Positions 2,836 through 19,259 of a stretch of 32,000 bases of DNA are shown in pieces. The stretch's first letter is position 1, and the number at the start of each line of letters is the position of its first letter. Position numbers and translations under genes: made by a program. Where the stretch lies: NCBI RefSeq assembly GCF_000940845.1, contig NZ_CP010341.1, positions 2,520,001-2,552,000 on the forward strand, read 5' to 3'. The notes beneath the pieces were generated by a model. It searched no databases and was not told the origin of the DNA. It saw only the letters and a program-made list of their open reading frames with translations. Origin of the DNA: Propionibacterium freudenreichii subsp. freudenreichii. GTDB taxonomy: Bacteria > Actinomycetota > Actinomycetes > Propionibacteriales > Propionibacteriaceae.

Positions 2836-2978
2836 ATTGTCTCATCGCCCGACGGGTGGCCGTCCGCGCGTCCCGGTCGGGCCGACGAGCAACCGACGTG
2901 CTGTTCCGCGCACGGCCCGGCAATGTCAGTGGCGCACGCCATGATGGAGGCAAGACCGGTCAATCCCCAGGAGCTGCC

Positions 2979-3710
2979 ATGAGCGCCATCACAAGTCCCA
3001 GCGCCGACCTCGACCCCGACGACGAGCTGGACGACACCAGCGAGCTGGATTCGGGGCCCGACGCCACCGGGCGTGCGGCATTGCTGGTGATCGGCATGCA
3101 GCAGGGCAACCTGGACGGCTGTTGGCAGGCCGAGCAGGTGACCGCGACCGTCTCCGACCTGATCGATCGGGCGCGCCTGGCGTCGGTGCCGGTGATCTGG
3201 GTGAACGACCTCACCCCTCCCGCGTCGGTAACCGGCAGCGGCGAATTGCTCAGCTCCCTGACCTGCGGCGCCGGCGAATACGTGGTGCTCAAGCCCTACC
3301 GCGACGGTTTCGAGTCCACCGGGCTGGCCGACTCGTTGGCCACGCTGGGGTCCGGCACGCTGTTCCTGTGCGGGGCATGGTCGCACGAATCGGTGCGCGC
3401 CACCATGGTCGGTGCATTGTCCCGCGGCTATTCGACGGTGCTTGTGGAGGACGCCCACACGGCCCCCTCACGCCATGACGGCACCGCCACGGTGAGCGGC
3501 GAATCCATCGTCTCGGTGGTGAACATGATCGCGGCCGCACCCGGCGCCCCCGCCCAGGACAGCAGCACCATGCCCTGTTACGACGTCAACTTCTCGGCCT
3601 TCGTGCACACCGACGACACCGCCGTCGGTGACGAGGCCCTGGCCGCGCAGGAGCAGGCGCAGGACGAGGCCCTCGACCCCGGGGATGACGACCCCACAGA
3701 CGACGACTGA
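2979..3710 (+). CDS. isochorismatase/cysteine-hydrolase-like protein with degenerate catalytic residues and acidic tails
   Basis: ALLVIGMQQG...VLKPYRDGFEST...LFLCGAWSHESVRATMVGALSRGYSTVLVEDAHTA follows the isochorismatase fold pattern. Start taken at ATG 2979, internal to the 2856 ORF, because the upstream part looks like shadow sequence. Confidence 0.6.
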   Translation: MSAITSPSADLDPDDELDDTSELDSGPDATGRAALLVIGMQQGNLDGCWQAEQVTATVSDLIDRARLASVPVIWVNDLTPPASVTGSGELLSSLTCGAGEYVVLKPYRDGFESTGLADSLATLGSGTLFLCGAWSHESVRATMVGALSRGYSTVLVEDAHTAPSRHDGTATVSGESIVSVVNMIAAAPGAPAQDSSTMPCYDVNFSAFVHTDDTAVGDEALAAQEQAQDEALDPGDDDPTDDD

Positions 3711-3744
3711 GTTCTTCCCGCGAACCGCCTGCCATGGGGCTGCC

Positions 3745-3905
3745 AGCGCGGTACTGTGCCTGCATCACGTGGCGAATCGGGTGCAATTCCCGGGCTGTCC
3801 CGCAACCGTGACAGTGCGTCGACCAGGCGCACTGGAGCCGGACCAAAGCGTGATAACCCACTCACCAACCCGTCGCGGACCGCGGGAGACCTGGGGCGCC
3901 ACATC
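3745..3905 (+). promoter_or_regulatory. cobalamin (B12) riboswitch
   Basis: GGCGAATCGGGTGCAATTCCCGGGCTGTCCCGCAACCGTGA matches the conserved GGGAA..GGTGnnAATCC..GCTGnCCCGCAAC.GT core. A CACTGG element follows, and GGGAGACCTGG (3884-3894) matches the B12 box (..GAGACCTGCC). Downstream, CCTTTC (3918-3923) can pair with the SD GAAAGG (3944-3949). Confidence 0.75.
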
Positions 3906-3955
3906 CGGCTCCATCGGCCTTTCCCAGATCCTCACGGGTCTTTGAAAGGAAGCCC

Positions 3956-6900
3956 ATGCAGGCCCTCCAAGGAAGGCGCCGGTCACGACGGGTGATGGCG
4001 GCCGCGGTAGCAGCCCTCACCGCCATGACCGTGCTGCCCTCCCAGCTCAACGCCGTTGCTGCACCCACTGATTCATTCGCTACCACGATGCCTGATGCGG
4101 CCCTAAGGGGTTGCGTCACCACGGCGCTGAACCTCGATTCCACCGCCGCTCCAACTTCGGACCAGCTCGCAACCGTGACCAGCCTCAGTTGCTCTGGCAA
4201 GGGCGTCGCTGACCTCACCGGTATCTCGGCCCTCCCCAACCTGGGCAAGCTATTTCTGGGCAACAATTCGCTGACCAGCTTGGCCCCACTCGCGACGTCA
4301 ACCAAGGTCTCCTCACTCGACGTCTCCAGTAATCAGCTTTCCGACATCACCCCGACGGCCAACCTGAAGGCCCTTGTCAGTGTGAACGTGGCGAACAACC
4401 GGCTTCGTGATCTTTCCCCGCTGAGCACCCTCCCGAATCTCGGAGGGCTGAGCATCACGTCAAATAGCCAGAAGGCAGTGGGAGCACCCGCCACCTCGGG
4501 CCAAGCGACCGCAGTCCCGACGGCCATTGACAAGACCGGCACGGTGTTCAAGGCCGAGGCACCGAGCGGGGTCACGGTGAGCGGCGCGACCGTCACCTAC
4601 CCGATCGCCGGCACGTACGACTGGTCGTTCAAGGACCAGAGCCTCTACTTCAACGGCACCATCACCGTCACAGTTTCCGCTGCATCGGGCGTGACCATCC
4701 CGGACGCCGGGCTGAGAGGGTGCATCAACGACAAGTTGGCCCTGGCCCCGGACGCCACGCCTACTCAAGACCAGCTCGCATCGATCACCGACCTCTCCTG
4801 TGTCAACAAGGGAGTCACCGACCTGACCGGCATATCGCAGCTGGGCAGCTTGAAGAACCTCACCCTGTCGACCAACAAGATCTCCGATCTCACGCCCCTG
4901 ACTCCCCTGACCGGTCTCGAATCACTCATCCTCACCGGTAATTCTGTCGCGGACGTATCGCCGCTGACGAGCCTGCAGAATCTCGCTGCCCTCACGCTCG
5001 ACCGGAACAACGTCTTGACACTGAACGGGCTGGGATACCTTCCCAAGCTCGCAACCCTTTCAGCATCATCCCAATTCAAGAATGAGGGGAGGACGCGCCT
5101 GGCAAGCATTGCAGGCCTCGACAAATTGACCGGGCTCACGAGCCTCGCGATCAACAACACTGACGTATCGGACCTCACCCCGGTGACTGGCCTCTCCGGC
5201 CTCACCAGATTGTCCGCAACCAACTCCCAGATCTCGTCTGCGGCACCGCTCGCCGCACTTGGTCGGCTCACGGCCCTTGATCTCAGTGGTAACCACATCT
5301 CAGATATTTCGCCCCTGAACAAGCTGGACATGACGTTGAATGCAATGCGCGTCACCGGGCAAACCCTTGCGGCGCCCGAGGCGAAGGCGTCGGTTGCGAC
5401 GGACGCGCCAGGCGTCACCGCGCTGGACGGAAGCATTCTCGTGGCAGCTCCCCCTGCGGGCCTCACGGTCAACGACGCCAAGGTCACCTACGCCTCTCCG
5501 GGCGATTACACCTGGACCTTCGAAGAGAAGACCCCCGGCAGCTATCCGAGGACTTTCTTCAGCGGCAAGATCACCCAGAGGGCAACCGATGCCCCGCCTG
5601 CGGTCGTGGGGGTGGACATCCCTGATACGAATTTCCGTACCTGCCTCGCCGGATTGCTCAACCACAGTGATCCCGCGGCACCCATCAGCGCCGATGAACT
5701 GGCTGGTCTCACCTCCGTGATCTGCGTCGGGAAATCAATCTCGAACCTCACCGGGGCCGCGAACCTGACCGGAGCAACTGAACTGATCCTGTCCACCAAT
5801 TCAATCTCCGACGTCACGCCGTTGCGTGGCTTGACCCAGCTGCAGAAACTCTACCTTCCGGGGAACAAGATCTCAGATCCTGCTCCGCTGTCCTCGCTCA
5901 CGAATCTGAATGAGCTGCTGTTGGGACAGAACCAGGTCACTTCCATCTCGGCGTTGTCCCCGTTGGCCGGACTCACCACGCTGGAAATCAGCCAGAAATA
6001 CGACAAGAACGGAAACACCGGTCTCACCAGCCTTGACGGCGTGCAGCACATGTCTTCGCTGAAGGCTCTGACGGCCAACAACTCCCGTATCTCGGATCTG
6101 GCGCCGTTGAAGGATCTGCACGAACTCAGCTCGCTCTACCTGAACAACAACTCAGTGAATGACCTCACGGCGCTGTCAGGACTGACCGCGCTTGAGAAGC
6201 TCGGGTTGAGTAACAACAACATCTCCAGCGTTACGCCACTGGCTTCCCTGACGAAGCTGTCCCGAATCGACATCGGGAATAATCACCTCATGGACCTGAG
6301 CCCCCTCGGATCCACGGCGATTGATGCCACGTTCAACCTGAACGCAAACAATCAGGCCACCCACCTTGCCACGGTCCCCGTCGGGCTCACCACGAGTGTT
6401 CCGCAACCGCGAGACATGAAGGGCGCAATTGTGCCCGTCACGCCTCCTGCAGGCCTGACGATCACCGATGGCACCGTCACTTACCCAAAGTCGGGCACGT
6501 ATTCATTCACGTGGACCTCATCCACCGGGGAGGGTGGCAAGTCATTCAGCGGAAGCGTTGACCAAGAGGTGGGTGCTGCAGTCATCGGCGCGGCAAACGT
6601 GCCCGACGCGGCACTACGCTCCTGCCTTGCCTCAGCAGCCGGCCTCGACGCCACCGCGTCCCCGACCGTCGACCAGCTCAAGGCACTGACCACCGTGAAG
6701 TGCGCGTCCAAGGGAATCACGAACCTGACCGGCGTTGAGAACCTCACCGCCGCCACGACCATCGACCTGTCGGGCAACACCCTGGCCGACGTCACCCCGC
6801 TGGCGGGGCTCGACAAGCTTGCCACGCTCAACCTGTCCCACACCGGACTGTCGTCGTTGACCACCGTGTCCGCCCTTCCAGCGCTCACCGCGCTCACCAT

Positions 6901-7324
6901 CAGCGGTAATCCGATCACCGACCTGTCGGCGCTCAAGGCGAAGACCGGCCTGGTCCTGCAGGCCACCGACATGACCGGCAGCGCCCCGGACGTGAAGGGC
7001 GGCGTCGCCAGCGACGTGCCCACCGCGTTCGACGCCACCGGCACCTCGGTTCCGCTCGGGGCCCCCGCCGGCGCAACCGTGGCGAACGGCAAGGTGACCT
7101 ACACCGCTGCGGGCAGTTATTCATGGCCCTTCACCACCACCGGCGGAGCCTTCTCGGGGACGATCACGCAGAAGGTCACCAGCGATGCGACCGACCCCGA
7201 CGCCAACAAGGGCGCCCAGGCCTGCGTGCAGGCCGGCAATGTGTGTGGGTCGTGGTGGAACGCGACACAGGCCTTCAGAAGGGCGGCTGCGCCACGAAGT
7301 TCTCCACCGGCACCGAGGCGCTGA
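3956..7324 (+). CDS. secreted internalin-like LRR surface protein, N-terminal reading-frame segment (frameshifted gene, part 1)
   Basis: Signal peptide ([37 protein letters not shown]). Four repeats of [cap ..PDAxLRxC..., about 22-aa LRRs LxxLxxLxLxxNxIsDlsPL, Ig-like inter-repeat ..VTYPxxGTYxWxF...FSGxItQ]. After position 7247 the frame turns into Arg/Pro-rich junk and stops at 7324. Confidence 0.85.
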
Positions 7325-8331
7325 CGAGCGCAGGCTTCACCACTGACAATCCGACCTTCGTCGGAAAGATCGACGGCTACCCGGCAACGGCCCCCGTCGA
7401 TGACCCCGGGCGCTACTCCTACTGGACCTACTGGCACGGCGTCTCCGCCGACCCGACGGCGACCACCCAGACCTACCCGTGGACCTTTTCCGAAGTGGGC
7501 CTCGGCGACTACCACCCGCGTGCCGGATCAGTGGAGGGCTGGCGCTTCGCAGTGAACCTGGGCAGTACCGACAAGGTGCCTGCCCCGAGCTTCGTGCTGA
7601 GCTACACCAACGGCGCGTCCCCGAGCCCGACGCCCACGCCGAGCCCGACGCCTTCCCCCACTCCCACGCCGAGCCCGACGCCCAGCGCGACCCCAACCCC
7701 GACACCCACGCCAAGCCCGAGGCCCAGCGCGACCCCGACGCCCACACCAACCCCGACGCCCACCCCCGTGGCGTGCACCATGTCCTACCCCGATGTGCCG
7801 TCCTCAATGGCCTTTTCGGACGACATCTGCTGGCTGACACAGCACAAGATCGCCACGGGCTGGCCCGACGGCACCTTCCGTCCGGTCACGCCGCTCAACC
7901 GTGACGCCATGGTGGCGTTCCTCTACCGGATGGCCGGCTCCCCGGCGTTCACGCCCACCCGGCAGACCTTCACCGACGTCGACGCGGGCAACATGTTCTT
8001 CAAGCAGATCGAGTGGGCCGCGTCCAATGGCATCGTCACGGGCTGGCCCGACGGCACCTTCCGTCCCACCCAGCCCATCACCCGCGACGCGATTGCCGCG
8101 CTGATCTATCGCCAGGCGGGAAGCCCCGCCGTGACACTGCCCGACCGCCCGTCATTCAATGACGTCTCGCCGACCACGATGTTCTACCGCGAGATCGAAT
8201 GGATGCAGGCCAAGGGCATCGCCAACGGTTGGGCCGACGGCAGCTACCGTCCGCTCAACGATACGAACCGTGACGCGATCGCCGCCTTCCTGCACCGTGC
8301 GACCGATCAGGGGGTGCTGGCCCTGCACTGA
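7243..8331 (+). CDS. C-terminal reading-frame segment of the same surface protein: DUF4430/transcobalamin-like domain, Pro/Thr linker, 3 SLH domains (frameshifted gene, part 2)
   Basis: Frame +2 relative to part 1. [32 protein letters not shown]...FVGKIDGYP...YWTYWHG...[18 protein letters not shown] resembles DUF4430. Three SLH repeats follow (F.DV....F...I.W....I..GW.DG.FRP...). Confidence 0.8.
7618..7767 (+). repeat. coding low-complexity (Pro-Thr/Pro-Ser)n linker repeat
   Basis: [50 protein letters not shown], encoded by reiterated CCGACGCCCACGCCGAGC-type units. Confidence 0.9.
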
Positions 8332-8550: not shown

Positions 8551-9804
8551 GTGACCACCCCCGGCATTCGTCAGCGCGTCGTGGGCGGACTGTCGCGGGA
8601 CGTGCTGGTGCTCGGCCTGATCGCCTTCTTCGTGGCGGTCGGCTTCGGCGTGCTGGTGCCCGTGCTGCCCACCTTCGCCGCATCCTTCGGCGCCACCGAC
8701 TTCCTGGTGGGCATGGTGGTCTCGATGTTCGCCGCCACCAGGCTTGCCACCAGCCCCTTCTGCGGCTGGATCCTGGACAAGATCGGCGGACGCCTCACCC
8801 TGGCCGTCGGCATCTTCATCGTCGCGGCATCCAGCTGGCTGATGGGCGAGGCCGGCGACTTCTGGTGGCTGCTCGGCTGGCGGGCCGCCGGCGGCATCGG
8901 CTCGGCCATGTTCACCGTGTCGGCCATGACCCTGCTGTTGGCGTCCGTGCCGCCCGACATGCGTGGACGCGCCACCGGCTTCTACCAGAGCGGCTTCCTC
9001 ATCGGCGGCATGGCCGGCCCCGCACTCGGCGGCCTGCTCACCCGCATCTCGCTGGTCGCGCCGTTCCGCTTCTACGCCATCACCCTGGCCATTGCCGGGC
9101 TGATCGGCCTCACGATGCTGTCGAGCGCCACCACCCACGCCGATCGTCCTGCCCACGCGCGCGCCACCCCGCGTCCGCTGCGCCAGGTGCTCGCCGACAC
9201 CCGCTTCCAGGCCGCGTGTGTGGCCAACTTCGCCCAGGGCTGGAACTCGATGGGGGTGCGCAATTCACTGATTCCCCTTGTCATCGTCGCAACGCTCGGC
9301 CTCACCCCCACCTGGACGGGCATCGTGTTCGCGGTGTCGGCGGTGGTGCAGGTGATCGTGCTGCACCCCATCGGCCACTTCGTCGACACGGTGGGACGCC
9401 GCCCCGCACTGCTGGCCGGTGGCGTCGTGATGGCCGCCTCGATCGCCGCGGTGCCCCTGTCGGGGTCGATCTGGATCGTCATGGCCCTGATGTGCGTCTA
9501 CGCGGTGGGCGCGGCGGCCATGAGCACTGCCCCGGCTGCCTCCGTCGGCGACGCCACCGGCGGTGTGCACGGCGGCACGCCCGTGGCGATCTTCTCGATG
9601 AGCAGCGACGTGGGTGCCATCATCGGTCCGCTGGCCGCCGGCGCGATCTCGGATGTGGCCGGACGACCCCTGGCCTTCGCCGTGGGCGCCGTCTTCCTGG
9701 CCCTCAGCTCGTTGGTCGCGCTGCGGATGCCCGGCGGACGTCCCGACCACTCCGCAGGATCTGTCGCGTCCGCCGATCCCGACGCCCTGCTGTCCGAGGA
9801 CTGA
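8551..9804 (+). CDS. MFS transporter
   Basis: 417-aa polytopic protein of about 12 TM segments with MFS-like loop motifs (WILDKIGGR, GWRAAGGIGSAM). GTG start lies 7-8 nt after a TAGGGT -10-like hexamer, so the transcript may be leaderless. Confidence 0.75.
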   Translation: MTTPGIRQRVVGGLSRDVLVLGLIAFFVAVGFGVLVPVLPTFAASFGATDFLVGMVVSMFAATRLATSPFCGWILDKIGGRLTLAVGIFIVAASSWLMGEAGDFWWLLGWRAAGGIGSAMFTVSAMTLLLASVPPDMRGRATGFYQSGFLIGGMAGPALGGLLTRISLVAPFRFYAITLAIAGLIGLTMLSSATTHADRPAHARATPRPLRQVLADTRFQAACVANFAQGWNSMGVRNSLIPLVIVATLGLTPTWTGIVFAVSAVVQVIVLHPIGHFVDTVGRRPALLAGGVVMAASIAAVPLSGSIWIVMALMCVYAVGAAAMSTAPAASVGDATGGVHGGTPVAIFSMSSDVGAIIGPLAAGAISDVAGRPLAFAVGAVFLALSSLVALRMPGGRPDHSAGSVASADPDALLSED

Positions 9805-9832
9805 CCGGGTCGATCGCCGGCGCCGTGCCCCT

Positions 9833-9886
9833 TGTCGGCCACCATCACATTGCCGGCCAATGTCACAGTGTCGGCCACTATCTGAG
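9833..9886 (+). repeat. three imperfect 18-bp direct repeats (TGYCGGCCA...) just upstream of tag
   Basis: TGTCGGCCACCATCACAT / TGCCGGCCAATGTCACAG / TGTCGGCCACTATCTGAG, starting at 9833, 9851 and 9869. Confidence 0.6.
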
Positions 9887-9895
9887 GATCCAACC

Positions 9896-10522
9896 ATGAC
9901 CGAGACACCCCACAGCCCCTCGTCGCACGCCGATCCCGCGTCCAACCCCGAGCTGGTGCGCGGCGAGGACGGTCGCGTGCGTCCCCGCTGGGCTGCCACG
10001 GATCCGCTGCTGCGCGACTACTACGACCACGAGTGGGGCGTGCCGATCCGCACCGAGCGTGGACTGTACGAGCGGCTGAGCCTGGAGGCCTTCCAATCCG
10101 GATTGAGCTGGGCGACGATCCTGCGCAAGCGTCCGGCCTTCCGTGCCGCATTCGCTGATTTCGAGCCCGACGCGGTGGCCGCGTTCGGCGACGACGATGT
10201 GCGCCGACTGCTTGCCGACGCCGGCATCGTGCGCAATGAACGCAAGATCCACGCCGCCATCACCAATGCGCGCGCCACGGTGTCGCTGCGCTCCGACGGT
10301 GGCCTGGTGCAGCTGGTCTGGGGCTTCCAGCCGGCGCCGGGCCCGCCTCCGCAGTCGTATGCCGAGGTGCCCGCGAAGGTCCCCGCATCGGAGCAGCTCG
10401 CCAAGGCCCTGAAGAAGGCGGGCTTCGTCTTCGTGGGACCCACCACGATGTACGCGCTGATGCAGGCGATCGGGATGGTGGACGATCACCTGGTGGGCGA
10501 ATCGGGACCACTGGCCGGCTGA
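9896..10522 (+). CDS. tag: DNA-3-methyladenine glycosylase I
   Basis: YYDHEWGVP...LYERLSLEAFQSGLSWATILRKR.AFR.AF.DF...VRN..KI.A.I.NA...FVGPTTMYALMQAIGMVDDH is the classic Tag signature. ATG at 9896 is internal to the 9614 ORF. Confidence 0.85.
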   Translation: MTETPHSPSSHADPASNPELVRGEDGRVRPRWAATDPLLRDYYDHEWGVPIRTERGLYERLSLEAFQSGLSWATILRKRPAFRAAFADFEPDAVAAFGDDDVRRLLADAGIVRNERKIHAAITNARATVSLRSDGGLVQLVWGFQPAPGPPPQSYAEVPAKVPASEQLAKALKKAGFVFVGPTTMYALMQAIGMVDDHLVGESGPLAG

Positions 10523-10552
10523 TTCCGGGGCCCGGACGCGCACCAATCCCCA

Positions 10553-10600
10553 CTAAGTGGACAGCTGTGCGGCGTCATTGCCGCACAAGTGACCACCTAG
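10553..10600. repeat. palindromic intergenic element, copy C
   Basis: CTAAGTGGACAGCTGTGCGGC gtcatt GCCGCACAAGTGACCACCTAG. Confidence 0.8.
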
Positions 10601-10673
10601 CGGTCCGTCCCCGGGAACCAGGCCCACCCCGCATCGACGCCACGATCCAGCCGCCCTCTGCACCAATCCCCCA

Positions 10674-10721
10674 CTAAGTGGACAACTGTGCGGCGTCATT
10701 CCCGCACAACTGCCCACTTAG
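10674..10721. repeat. palindromic intergenic element, copy D
   Basis: CTAAGTGGACAACTGTGCGGC gtcatt CCCGCACAACTGCCCACTTAG. It is part of an approximately 120-bp tandem duplication with copy C (shared CACCAATCCCCACTAAGTGG and CCGTCCCCGGGAACCAGGCC flanks). Confidence 0.8.
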
Positions 10722-10891
10722 GGTTCCGTCCAACAGAAACCAGGCCCGTCCCCGGGAACCAGGCCAACCCCGCACCGCAAGACGCCGCGGAGCACCCCCG
10801 CACACCACACAGAAATGTCAGACCCCTCCCCTAGCGTGGATCACTCCAGCCCCTGCTGGAACCCTTCGGGCCCGGACGGCCCGGCGACACC

Positions 10892-12112
10892 ATGGAGACC
10901 GCCATGACCGAACTACCCGTGCCCGTGCCGGGCACCACCAGCGACACCCTCATGTGGGCCGATCCCACCACCGTGGAGCCGGAGGCCCTCGACCAGCTGC
11001 GCGCGATCTCGCGCCTGCCCTGGCTGGCGAAGCTGCGCGTGATGCCCGACGTGCACCTGGGCAAGGGCGCCACCGTCGGCAGCGTGATCGCCATGCGCGA
11101 CGCGGTCTCGCCGGCGGCGGTGGGCGTCGACATCGGCTGCGGCATGGTTGCCGCACGCACCAACCTGACGGTGGACGACCTGCCCGACAGCCTGCATGCG
11201 ATCCGCTCCCGCCTCGAGGAGCTCGTGCCGGTGGGATGGAAGAGCCACACCGGCACTGCCCCGGTGCTGAGCCGCGACGAACAGCTCAAGGGGCGATTCA
11301 CCACCCTGTTCGACCGCTTCGGACAGCTGCGCGCGCCCCACATCGACGACCGCGAGACCCGGGCGCTGTCGCAGTCGGGCACGCTGGGCGGCGGCAACCA
11401 CTTCCTGGAGCTGCAGGCCGACGACACCGGCACCGTATGGCTCATGCTGCACTCGGGATCGCGCAACATCGGCAAGGAACTGGCCGACCGCCACATCACC
11501 GAGGCCAAGGGGCTCGACCACAACCTCGACCTGCCCGACCGCGACCTGGCCGTCTTCCTGGCCGGCACCCCCGAAATGGACGACTACCTCCACGACCTCT
11601 ACTGGGCGCAGGAATATGCGCGCCTGAACCGCGACATCATGATGCGCACCTTCAAGGGCGTCATCACCGAGTTCTTCCCGCACGCCACCTTCGACCACGA
11701 CGTCAACTGCCACCACAACTACGTGTCGCAGGAGTGCTACGACGGCGTCGACCTGATCGTCACGCGCAAGGGCGCCATCTTCGCCGGCAGCGGCACGCTG
11801 GGGCTGATCCCCGGCTCGATGGCCACCGGCTCCTATGTGGTGCGGGGCCTGGGCAACGCCACCGGCCTGTGCTCCGCCTCGCATGGTGCGGGACGACGCA
11901 TGTCGCGCCGTGCGGCCCGTCGCACCTTCACCGTGGACGACCTCGCCGCGCAAACGGCCGGCGTCGAGTCGCGCAAGGACGAGGGCGTGCTCGACGAGAT
12001 CCCCGGCGCCTACAAGGACATCGACGCGGTGATCCACGACCAGACCACCGGGCCGAGCCCGCTCGTGGAGGTGGTGGCGAGGCTGCGCACGCTGCTGTGT
12101 GTCAAGGGCTGA
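10892..12112 (+). CDS. rtcB: RNA-splicing ligase RtcB
   Basis: MPDVHLGKGATVGSV, GVDIGCGM, GGGNHFLELQ, HSGSRNIGK, CHHNY, GSMATGSYVV, SASHGAGR are the RtcB metal/GTP-binding motifs. Confidence 0.9.
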   Translation: METAMTELPVPVPGTTSDTLMWADPTTVEPEALDQLRAISRLPWLAKLRVMPDVHLGKGATVGSVIAMRDAVSPAAVGVDIGCGMVAARTNLTVDDLPDSLHAIRSRLEELVPVGWKSHTGTAPVLSRDEQLKGRFTTLFDRFGQLRAPHIDDRETRALSQSGTLGGGNHFLELQADDTGTVWLMLHSGSRNIGKELADRHITEAKGLDHNLDLPDRDLAVFLAGTPEMDDYLHDLYWAQEYARLNRDIMMRTFKGVITEFFPHATFDHDVNCHHNYVSQECYDGVDLIVTRKGAIFAGSGTLGLIPGSMATGSYVVRGLGNATGLCSASHGAGRRMSRRAARRTFTVDDLAAQTAGVESRKDEGVLDEIPGAYKDIDAVIHDQTTGPSPLVEVVARLRTLLCVKG

Positions 12113-19183: not shown

Positions 19184-19259
19184 GGGGCATTAGCTCAGTT
19201 GGTAGAGCGATGGCTTTGCAAGCCATAGGTCAGGGGTTCGAATCCCCTATGCTCCACCA
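19184..19259 (+). tRNA. tRNA-Ala (anticodon UGC), CCA encoded
   Basis: GGGGCAT TA GCTC AGTTGGTA GAGC G ATGGC TTTGCAA GCCAT AGGTC AGGGG TTCGAAT CCCCT ATGCTCC A CCA folds as a cloverleaf by hand. The anticodon loop is cTTTGCAAg. Confidence 0.95.

Follow-up and report, generated by a model that had tools for sequence, protein, structure and literature searches.

The intergenic leader of inlA in Propionibacterium freudenreichii contains a compact riboswitch aptamer of the cobalamin clan, and InlA, the internalin-like surface protein encoded behind it, includes, between its LRR modules and its SLH anchors, a domain of about 110 aa that had not been annotated before and that has a transcobalamin-like fold. 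We put the probability at about 0.72 that the two belong together as a compact B12 riboswitch and a B12-repressed, corrinoid-binding surface protein under translational control. Fold modelling makes a B12-capturing protein of the cell surface, repressed by B12 and fitting a transport regulon, the most likely identity of InlA. Against this main reading stand the lack of a gathering-level Rfam score, the modest Foldseek E-values and the lack of a Pfam match for the domain, as well as the frameshift that interrupts inlA in the window (the whole 32-kb stretch of DNA that was analysed), with the break lying 5' of the domain. A need for B12 capture is also not obvious, because P. freudenreichii makes its own B12. 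The features discussed below are collected in Table 1.

Table 1. Features of the inlA leader and gene, numbered from the first nucleotide of the window.
Feature	Position	Strand	Description or basis
Intergenic leader of inlA	3711-3955	+	245 nt; isochorismatase-family gene 2856-3710 (+) on the 5' side, ATG of the LRR gene at 3956 on the 3' side
-10-like hexamer TACTGT (TANNNT)	3752-3757	+	Conservation in related leaders
Compact cobalamin-clan aptamer	3764-3854	+	Covariance model of relatives and helix covariation
Aptamer outer helix	AUCACG 3764-3769 / CGUGAU 3849-3854	+	
Aptamer P5-like hairpin	3778-3781 / 3789-3792	+	Loop UGCAAUU
Aptamer core, invariant		+	GCUGUCCCGCAAC
Aptamer P6 base	CCG 3806-3808 / CGG 3839-3841	+	
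Aptamer P6 extension hairpin, variable	3812-3818 / 3828-3834	+	Covarying
Family B12 box GAGCCGGACC	3835-3844	+	Shortened form of rAGYCMGgAgaCCkGCcd
Second conserved hairpin CCCGU-CGCGGACC-GCGGG	3869-3886	+	8-nt CGNGG... loop; candidate L13-type regulatory hairpin
Possible anti-aptamer strand GCGGGAGACCUGGGG	3883-3897	+	Complementary to core 3789-3803; includes GGGAGACCTGG
SD-sequestering hairpin	CCUUUC 3918-3923 / GAAAGG 3944-3949; AGAUCC 3926-3931 / GGGUCU 3936-3941	+	Loop UCAC
inlA (internalin A)	3956-8331	+	Signal peptide, four LRR + Ig-like modules, SLBB domain, Pro/Thr linker, three SLH repeats
inlA ORFs as they stand	3956-7324 and 7123-8331	+	Interrupted by frameshift
(TG)4 run causing the frameshift (+TG)	7241-7248	+	Comparison with L117
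Transcobalamin-beta-like (SLBB / divergent DUF4430 / SCO2322-type) domain	7243-7600	+	~110 aa; predicted corrinoid-binding module

The aptamer and its detection

A cobalamin riboswitch in the leader of this LRR/SLH gene had been proposed in a first-pass annotation, and the strings quoted there, namely the core GGTGCAATTCCCGGGCTGTCCCGCAACCGTGA (3780-3811), CCTTTC (3918-3923), GAAAGG (3944-3949) and the ATG at 3956 behind a leader of 245 nt, were all found at the sites given for them. The proposal has held up, as the aptamer is kept by orthologous genes with different 5' neighbours. The significant RF00174 match that was expected alongside did not appear, and no model of the clan reaches its gathering threshold: Cobalamin (RF00174) scores 23.4 bits against a gathering threshold of 31.5 over 3774-3889 (once trimming had disabled the AdoCbl-II alignment), while AdoCbl-II (RF01689) scores 33.9 bits against 36.5 over 3757-3829 in a sensitive scan of the leader. 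When the whole 32 kb were scanned at gathering thresholds, no cobalamin-clan match was returned; the sole match was a tRNA gene (19184-19256, +, 77.1 bits). The inlA leader and its relatives nevertheless give specific, if sub-threshold, matches to three cobalamin-clan models (RF00174, RF01482 and RF01689), and under curated criteria alone the element would stay unannotated. Since only 5 of the 18 relatives tested reach a gathering score and 13 miss it, the compact aptamer can be regarded as a subclass that the curated models barely reach.

The element is recovered far more clearly by a covariance model of its own family (R1), which was built from 53 relatives with the window left out and which assigns 73.4 bits (E 1.4e-24) to 3758-3860, the runner-up in the 32 kb scoring 13.2 bits. 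Helices and covariation were tested on an alignment of 54 non-redundant sequences (A1), in which 83.3% of the cells are paired, compared with 63.5% in shuffles and no more than 47.6% when registers are slid, and in which the covariation score is 0.438, compared with 0.139 in shuffles (0/500 reach 0.438) and at most 0.144 in slid registers. Double changes are present at 21 of the 28 pairs of the aptamer helices, with compensatory changes in the outer helix, P5 and the P6 extension, and RNAalifold independently recovers P5, the P6 base and the P6 extension. The covariation is not circular, because the pattern used for the genome scan fixed only the unpaired core. The hallmarks of a cobalamin core, GGUG..UCC and GCUGnCCCGCAAC, are thus found inside a multi-helix junction that is backed by covariation, and on these comparisons the leader is judged to hold a genuine compact cobalamin-clan riboswitch aptamer. 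A fortuitous resemblance to a cobalamin riboswitch, with no structured RNA behind it, would fit the fact that every Rfam score lies under gathering, but it conflicts with the score against the independent family model, with covariation far over the controls and with the retention of the element 5' of orthologs and paralogous operons in many genera; we give it next to no weight, and the covariation test and family model refute it.

The AdoCbl-II span was also considered as the boundary of the aptamer and was rejected: its 3' strand is taken from the loop of the variable hairpin, and its outer helix UGCCUG/CCAGGC is not kept in relatives. This helix also takes in the final base of the likely -10 box and would fall mostly 5' of the predicted start.

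Two motifs named in the first-pass annotation are to be placed differently. CACTGG (3830-3835), taken for a conserved element, falls mostly within the 3' strand (3828-3834) of the variable, covarying hairpin, and GGGAGACCTGG (3884-3894), taken for the B12 box, lies outside the aptamer, the box of the family being GAGCCGGACC according to the family alignment. The RF00174 alignment likewise puts GGGAGA (3884-3889) at the position of the B12 box, with low posterior probability. The family box consists of GAGCCGGACC followed by GCC/AAA and is shortened relative to rAGYCMGgAgaCCkGCcd, a consensus taken from PMC5644110. It was seen in leaders located through their proteins (L001, L003, L004, L006 and L007), whereas its invariance in L008-L116 arose by construction, because the pattern of the genome scan demanded the box.

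Among leaders L001-L114, a TANNNT hexamer is located 23-29 nt 5' of P5 in 26 of the 27 leaders of the Propionibacteriaceae type. The -10 assignment in the inlA leader rests on this conservation, since a scan of the leader region for the sigma-70 consensus gave no promoter match. Sequence conservation suggests that transcription starts at about 3764, where the aptamer begins, and the fixed distance of the hexamer implies that transcripts of this type may begin at the outer helix, in a leaderless-aptamer arrangement.

Expression platform and mode of control

Downstream of the aptamer, at a distance of 25-63 nt, a hairpin with a CGNGG loop and a varying stem is found in 77 of 114 distinct leaders. 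In the Streptomyces loci (L009-L116) the loop of this second hairpin reads CGAGG and may contain the SD. The CGNGG-loop positions show no Watson-Crick covariation with L5 or with any aptamer column, and a kissing interaction between L5 and the CGNGG loop found no support, as the mutual information is dominated by lineage and has no Watson-Crick pattern. Covariation of a CCC/CGC core triplet with the downstream hairpin was considered and dropped as well, since by eye it fails in L011 and L061.

The pairing of CCTTTC with GAAAGG had been proposed to bury the SD and to switch off translation. The SD hairpin (3918-3949) does form in the minimum-energy fold of the full leader, in which the GCGGGAGACCUGGGG strand pairs with the aptamer core when no constraint is applied, but it is gone when the aptamer is forced to fold, and it is not kept in all relatives, although similar anti-SD pairings are legible by eye in L112, L016 and L057. 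When the platform is folded alone, the 3883-3897 strand pairs with UUUCCC (3919-3924), so that with the aptamer closed GGGAGA/UUUCCC is paired and the SD is free, which, taken literally, would describe an ON switch. SD accessibility does not change under constrained folding (0.41 against 0.42 when the aptamer is forced or released), and the same calculation in 17 relatives gave no consistent signal of SD masking. Translational OFF control through this hairpin, in the form first stated, is therefore reduced to a mere possibility.

As a mode of control, corrinoid-dependent repression at translation initiation is still the most likely, at about even odds, and is favoured by analogy with the riboswitch family and with the transport-type regulon. 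We infer that an RNA starting at about 3764, with the aptamer first, would use its outer helix to close a junction containing the GGUG..UCC hairpin, the GCUGUCCCGCAAC core, the short P6 extension and the shortened B12 box. Once a corrinoid is bound, a downstream platform comprising the CGNGG-loop hairpin (3869-3886), the core-complementary strand (3883-3897) and the SD-burying hairpin (3918-3949) would lower the synthesis of InlA. Repression would take place at translation initiation, no intrinsic terminator having been detected in 3500-4100.

The main alternative to translational repression is that a functional aptamer acts on transcription, through Rho-dependent termination or RNA decay, and that the SD hairpin is incidental. 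To this we assign roughly half the weight given to translational repression. It would account for folding without ligand-dependent masking of the SD and for the incomplete conservation of the SD hairpin, and the cbiM riboswitch of one P. freudenreichii strain is transcriptional according to a statement cited in PMC11494915; the missing intrinsic terminator, and the fact that a stable hairpin encloses the SD both in the window and in several relatives, argue against it.

A further possibility, which we consider unlikely, is that a corrinoid other than adenosylcobalamin is sensed, or that the element is an ON switch, and that the protein, instead of scavenging B12, would bind or present the compound in question, for example an incomplete corrinoid, a cobamide variant or even heme. 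The shortened B12 box and the lack of a large P6 peripheral extension could be taken in this sense, as could the platform-only fold with the aptamer closed and the SD freed and the capacity of the host to synthesise its own B12. One preprint is said to tie an ECF-like system to heme uptake in its title and to use 'transcobalamin-like' in its text, and was counted on the same side. Selectivity varies among the classes of cobalamin riboswitches (Polaski 2017, as summarised in PMC11477304). The core nucleotides, however, fit the cobalamin consensus, the Rfam matches that are better than chance are to the cobalamin clan only, and nothing was found in favour of another ligand class; a corrinoid of the cobalamin type is the probable ligand.

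Distribution of the riboswitch type

Leaders that were located through the protein alone carried the element in 6 of 6 cases. In Tessaracoccus terricola (L001), the first gene of an operon encodes a homolog and is joined there by genes for a paralog, CbiQ, a double ABC ATPase and an ECF S-component; a similar element 5' of this operon scores 41.5 bits against RF01482 (gathering 50). Three more small homologs and two InlA-like orthologs carry the element, their 5' neighbours all being unrelated, so that the comparison of orthologous leaders suggested in the first-pass annotation came out in favour of a retained aptamer.

With a degenerate leader pattern, 109 loci were found in a species-level genome collection, all of them in Actinomycetota (Streptomyces, Kitasatospora, Propionibacteriaceae, Tessaracoccus, Nocardioides, Aeromicrobium and Nakamurella). 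The transcobalamin-like domain is encoded on the same strand at 59 of the 66 RNA-located loci with at least 2.5 kb of downstream sequence (89%), and the domain gene is often accompanied by genes of ECF transporters. At other loci the first downstream gene encodes CbiQ (L056 and L090), an alpha/alpha-toroid protein, or an SLH or LRR protein, and the riboswitch type is thus positioned 5' of B12-transport-type genes at L001, L056 and L090. The domain was not detectable in the proteins 3' of the riboswitch at L011, L014, L034 and L106. Judged from these leaders and their genes, the type appears to be a compact actinobacterial cobalamin-riboswitch subclass in whose regulon a B12-carrier-like domain family without annotation predominates. 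InlA is best read as a B12-acquisition protein because it contains this domain and because so large a share of the loci encode it; a riboswitch at a surface-protein gene, which had been singled out as a non-standard regulon member, is accordingly less odd, and that objection is largely resolved.

At the Streptomyces locus L010, the first gene encodes an alpha/alpha-toroid of the prenyltransferase/SHC type and is followed by a gene for a SCO2322-family SLBB protein. The alpha/alpha-toroid is the fold of the transcobalamin alpha-domain, and arrangements of the L010 type are in effect a split transcobalamin.

L068 carries a riboswitch-controlled gene (2860-5595) for an InlA-like LRR protein of 911 aa with an LPxTG-type anchor, and no SLBB domain was detected on the riboswitch strand of this locus. 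Because of this protein, the connection between LRR and B12 is not fully explained by fusion to the SLBB domain, and LRR modules seem to have a link of their own to the B12 regulon. Placing LRR modules in the regulon on this ground leads to the speculation, which we regard as doubtful, that InlA, until now treated as an internalin-like immunomodulatory adhesin, is a B12-regulated, corrinoid-handling machine on the S-layer whose LRR modules dock on B12-carrying proteins of the host or of neighbours; the docked modules would let the transcobalamin-like domain take the cofactor from such carriers. If this were true, it would amount to a Gram-positive, LRR-based system of B12 piracy or presentation under a compact actinobacterial riboswitch subclass.

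The transcobalamin-like domain

In the product of inlA, Pfam matches the LRR and SLH parts. The domain itself has no Pfam match even at E up to 10, DUF4430 (PF14478) included, and a search of PDB sequences with the domain profile returned nothing. NCBIfam NF040672 (SCO2322 family) matches it partially with 29.4 bits (E 8.7e-7) and thus stays under its curated cutoff of 85 bits. An exhaustive homolog search for the domain yielded 364 representatives, most of which are secreted proteins of ~200 aa with a Pro/Thr linker and an LPxTG anchor, while some are InlA-like fusions. Two unusual architectures were also seen: P0008 has three tandem SLBB-like domains 3' of its LRR modules, and P0030 combines SLBB, LRR and, by eye, an alpha/alpha-toroid-like segment in one chain of 1459 aa, as a single-chain 'bacterial transcobalamin plus LRR'.

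The AlphaFold (AF2) model of the domain, made from 74 sequences, has a pLDDT of 85.9 and a pTM of 0.79. Its best 16 Foldseek matches in the PDB are all to transcobalamin, intrinsic factor or haptocorrin (probability 0.98-1.0), with E-values of 1e-3 to 7e-2 and TM of about 0.46-0.57, which are modest; the list includes the isolated transcobalamin beta-domain (5no0 and 5np4), and the bacterial structure 3u7z, which we take to be a DUF4430 protein, comes next after the carriers. Within the family, DUF4430 is matched by 7 of the 74 members (best E 2.1e-8), more than match any other Pfam family, and SCO2322_fam by 53 of the 74 (E up to 1e-3). These links, together with the fold matches, assign the domain, as modelled, to the transcobalamin-like clade within the SLBB beta-grasp superfamily. 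The context is likewise one of surface and transport, with a signal peptide and SLH repeats in InlA and with CbiQ, an ABC ATPase and an ECF S-component at L001. Secreted bacterial SLBB proteins of the transcobalamin-like kind, often with alpha/alpha-toroids and CbiO/CbiQ, have been predicted to be B12 scavengers (Burroughs et al. 2007, PMC1796856). InlA would accordingly expose a putative corrinoid-binding module at the S-layer, and scarcity of B12 would be the condition for its synthesis. Elsewhere in Actinomycetota the same type of domain, in a small LPxTG protein or beside an alpha/alpha-toroid, heads riboswitch-controlled ECF operons.

The inlA gene and its frameshift

The LRR/SLH gene is P. 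freudenreichii inlA, as follows from the 146-kDa size, the LRR and SLH architecture and the strain names; the 146-kDa InlA has been described in PMC5902329. InlA is associated with the S-layer and counted among the immunomodulatory surface proteins (PMC5902329; PMC12191393), and strain JS22 has a truncated InlA of 61 kDa without SLH domains (PMC5902329; PMC12191393). The genes 3' of inlA encode an MFS transporter (8551-9804), a methyladenine glycosylase (within 9614-10522) and RtcB (10892-12112), and since none of these (8551-12112) is B12-related, inlA is a stand-alone target of the riboswitch. In the window no transporter gene of the CbiQ/CbiO type adjoins inlA.

In the window the gene is frameshifted. 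Its first ORF, of 1122 codons, ends in a nonsense tail, the ORF 7123-8331 encodes the three SLH repeats, and the frame with the highest third-position GC changes near 7250. Taking one TG out of the (TG)4 run yields a continuous protein of 1457 aa, and the reconstructed junction, with the motif AGNVWVVVE, agrees with the conserved start of the homologous domains. P. freudenreichii CP116039.1 (L117), which has the same gene order, carries (TG)3 and an intact protein of 1353 aa (P0153) with 90% identity. Relative to this strain there is also a length polymorphism of ~306 nt in the Pro/Thr-rich linker, at ~7479-7783, where the blastn blocks break. Either a slip of the phase-variation kind or an error of assembly could account for the (TG)4 run; unless it is the latter, the frameshift would leave the protein without its SLBB and SLH parts.

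A state of decay, in which the riboswitch, inlA or both have lost their function in this lineage and the association is historical, has to be weighed here. The frameshift in the window speaks for it, as does the fragmentation of the gene in many strains (PMC5902329); besides P. freudenreichii proteins of 1353-1415 aa, the InlA cluster contains numerous shorter pieces (112-828 aa) that come from other strains. The closest foreign aptamer, L014 (2807-2958), from an uncultured Propionibacterium MAG, passes RF00174 at 35.1 bits and has no convincing ORF within ~1.8 kb on its 3' side. On the other hand, the conserved core positions and the helices are all intact, the leader of CP116039.1, in which inlA is intact, is identical at 270/270 nt, and InlA is an abundant protein expressed at the surface of several strains (PMC12191393). 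Decay is hence a distinctly improbable explanation, and the reading of InlA as a riboswitch-controlled, B12-capturing surface protein is preferred.

Comparison with known systems

With the members of clan CL00101 (RF00174 Cobalamin, RF01482 AdoCbl and RF01689 AdoCbl-II) the inlA element shares the GGUG..A.UCC hairpin (P5/L5), the GCUGnCCCGCAAC core, a P6 closed by CCG/CGG, a B12-box-like 3' strand, an outer closing helix and a position in the 5' leader of genes of the B12-transport type. It differs in scoring under every gathering threshold and in its shortened box (GAGCCGG-ACC). Class-I riboswitches (classes I, IIa and IIb as summarised in PMC11477304) have a large peripheral extension, whereas P6 of the inlA aptamer carries one short variable hairpin. 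The clan links aptamer and platform through an L5-L13 kissing loop, for which inlA-type leaders offer a candidate partner in the conserved CGNGG hairpin, although no complementarity of its loop to L5 was seen.

The riboswitches at cbiL, cobD/cbiB, mutA and cbiM belong to the same organism and superfamily as the inlA element but, unlike it, govern B12 synthesis, cobalt transport or a B12 enzyme. Three cobalamin riboswitches of P. freudenreichii are listed in PMC5644110 (cbiL, cbiB and mutA) and three in PMC11494915 (cbiL, cobD and cbiM), and inlA is not among them in either case.

Closest to InlA are the proteins with SLBB/DUF4430 and CbiO/CbiQ of the type described by Burroughs (PMC1796856), which are likewise secreted and wall-anchored, have the transcobalamin beta-domain fold, and have paralogs in operons with CbiQ and an ABC ATPase as well as alpha/alpha-toroid partners. 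In contrast to these, the InlA domain is too divergent for Pfam DUF4430, its relatives being filed by NCBIfam as 'SCO2322 family', it is fused to internalin-type LRR and SLH parts, and its gene stands alone without transporter genes. In concept, InlA is also similar to the Bacteroides relay of the BtuG/BtuH type, in which surface-exposed proteins of the B12 regulon capture corrinoids before the membrane transporter, although that system is Gram-negative and both its folds and its cell envelope are unrelated. BtuG/BtuH-type proteins are surface cobamide-capture proteins. Listeria internalin A, from which the name InlA derives, has LRR and Ig-like inter-repeat modules and is wall-anchored, whereas the Propionibacterium protein has four LRR modules, the SLBB domain and SLH anchoring; we know of no riboswitch or B12 link for Listeria InlA.

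Implications

The searchable literature contains no report that connects InlA with B12 or with a riboswitch, nor was a prior description found there through SCO2322 or Gram-positive B12-binding surface proteins. What is new is the inlA member of the riboswitch, its weakly detected subclass and the reinterpretation of InlA, while the kinds of riboswitch and of domain were already known. Rfam thresholds largely miss the subclass, and these findings on it and on its regulon should help annotation as well as work on cobamide sharing. If the main reading is true, inlA would have the fourth or fifth cobalamin riboswitch of P. freudenreichii, for which published descriptions give three. P. freudenreichii serves both as the industrial source of B12 and as a probiotic whose anti-inflammatory effect involves surface proteins, InlA being listed as one of them; the display of a surface protein, and possibly immunomodulation and the variability between strains, would then be tied to cobalamin status.
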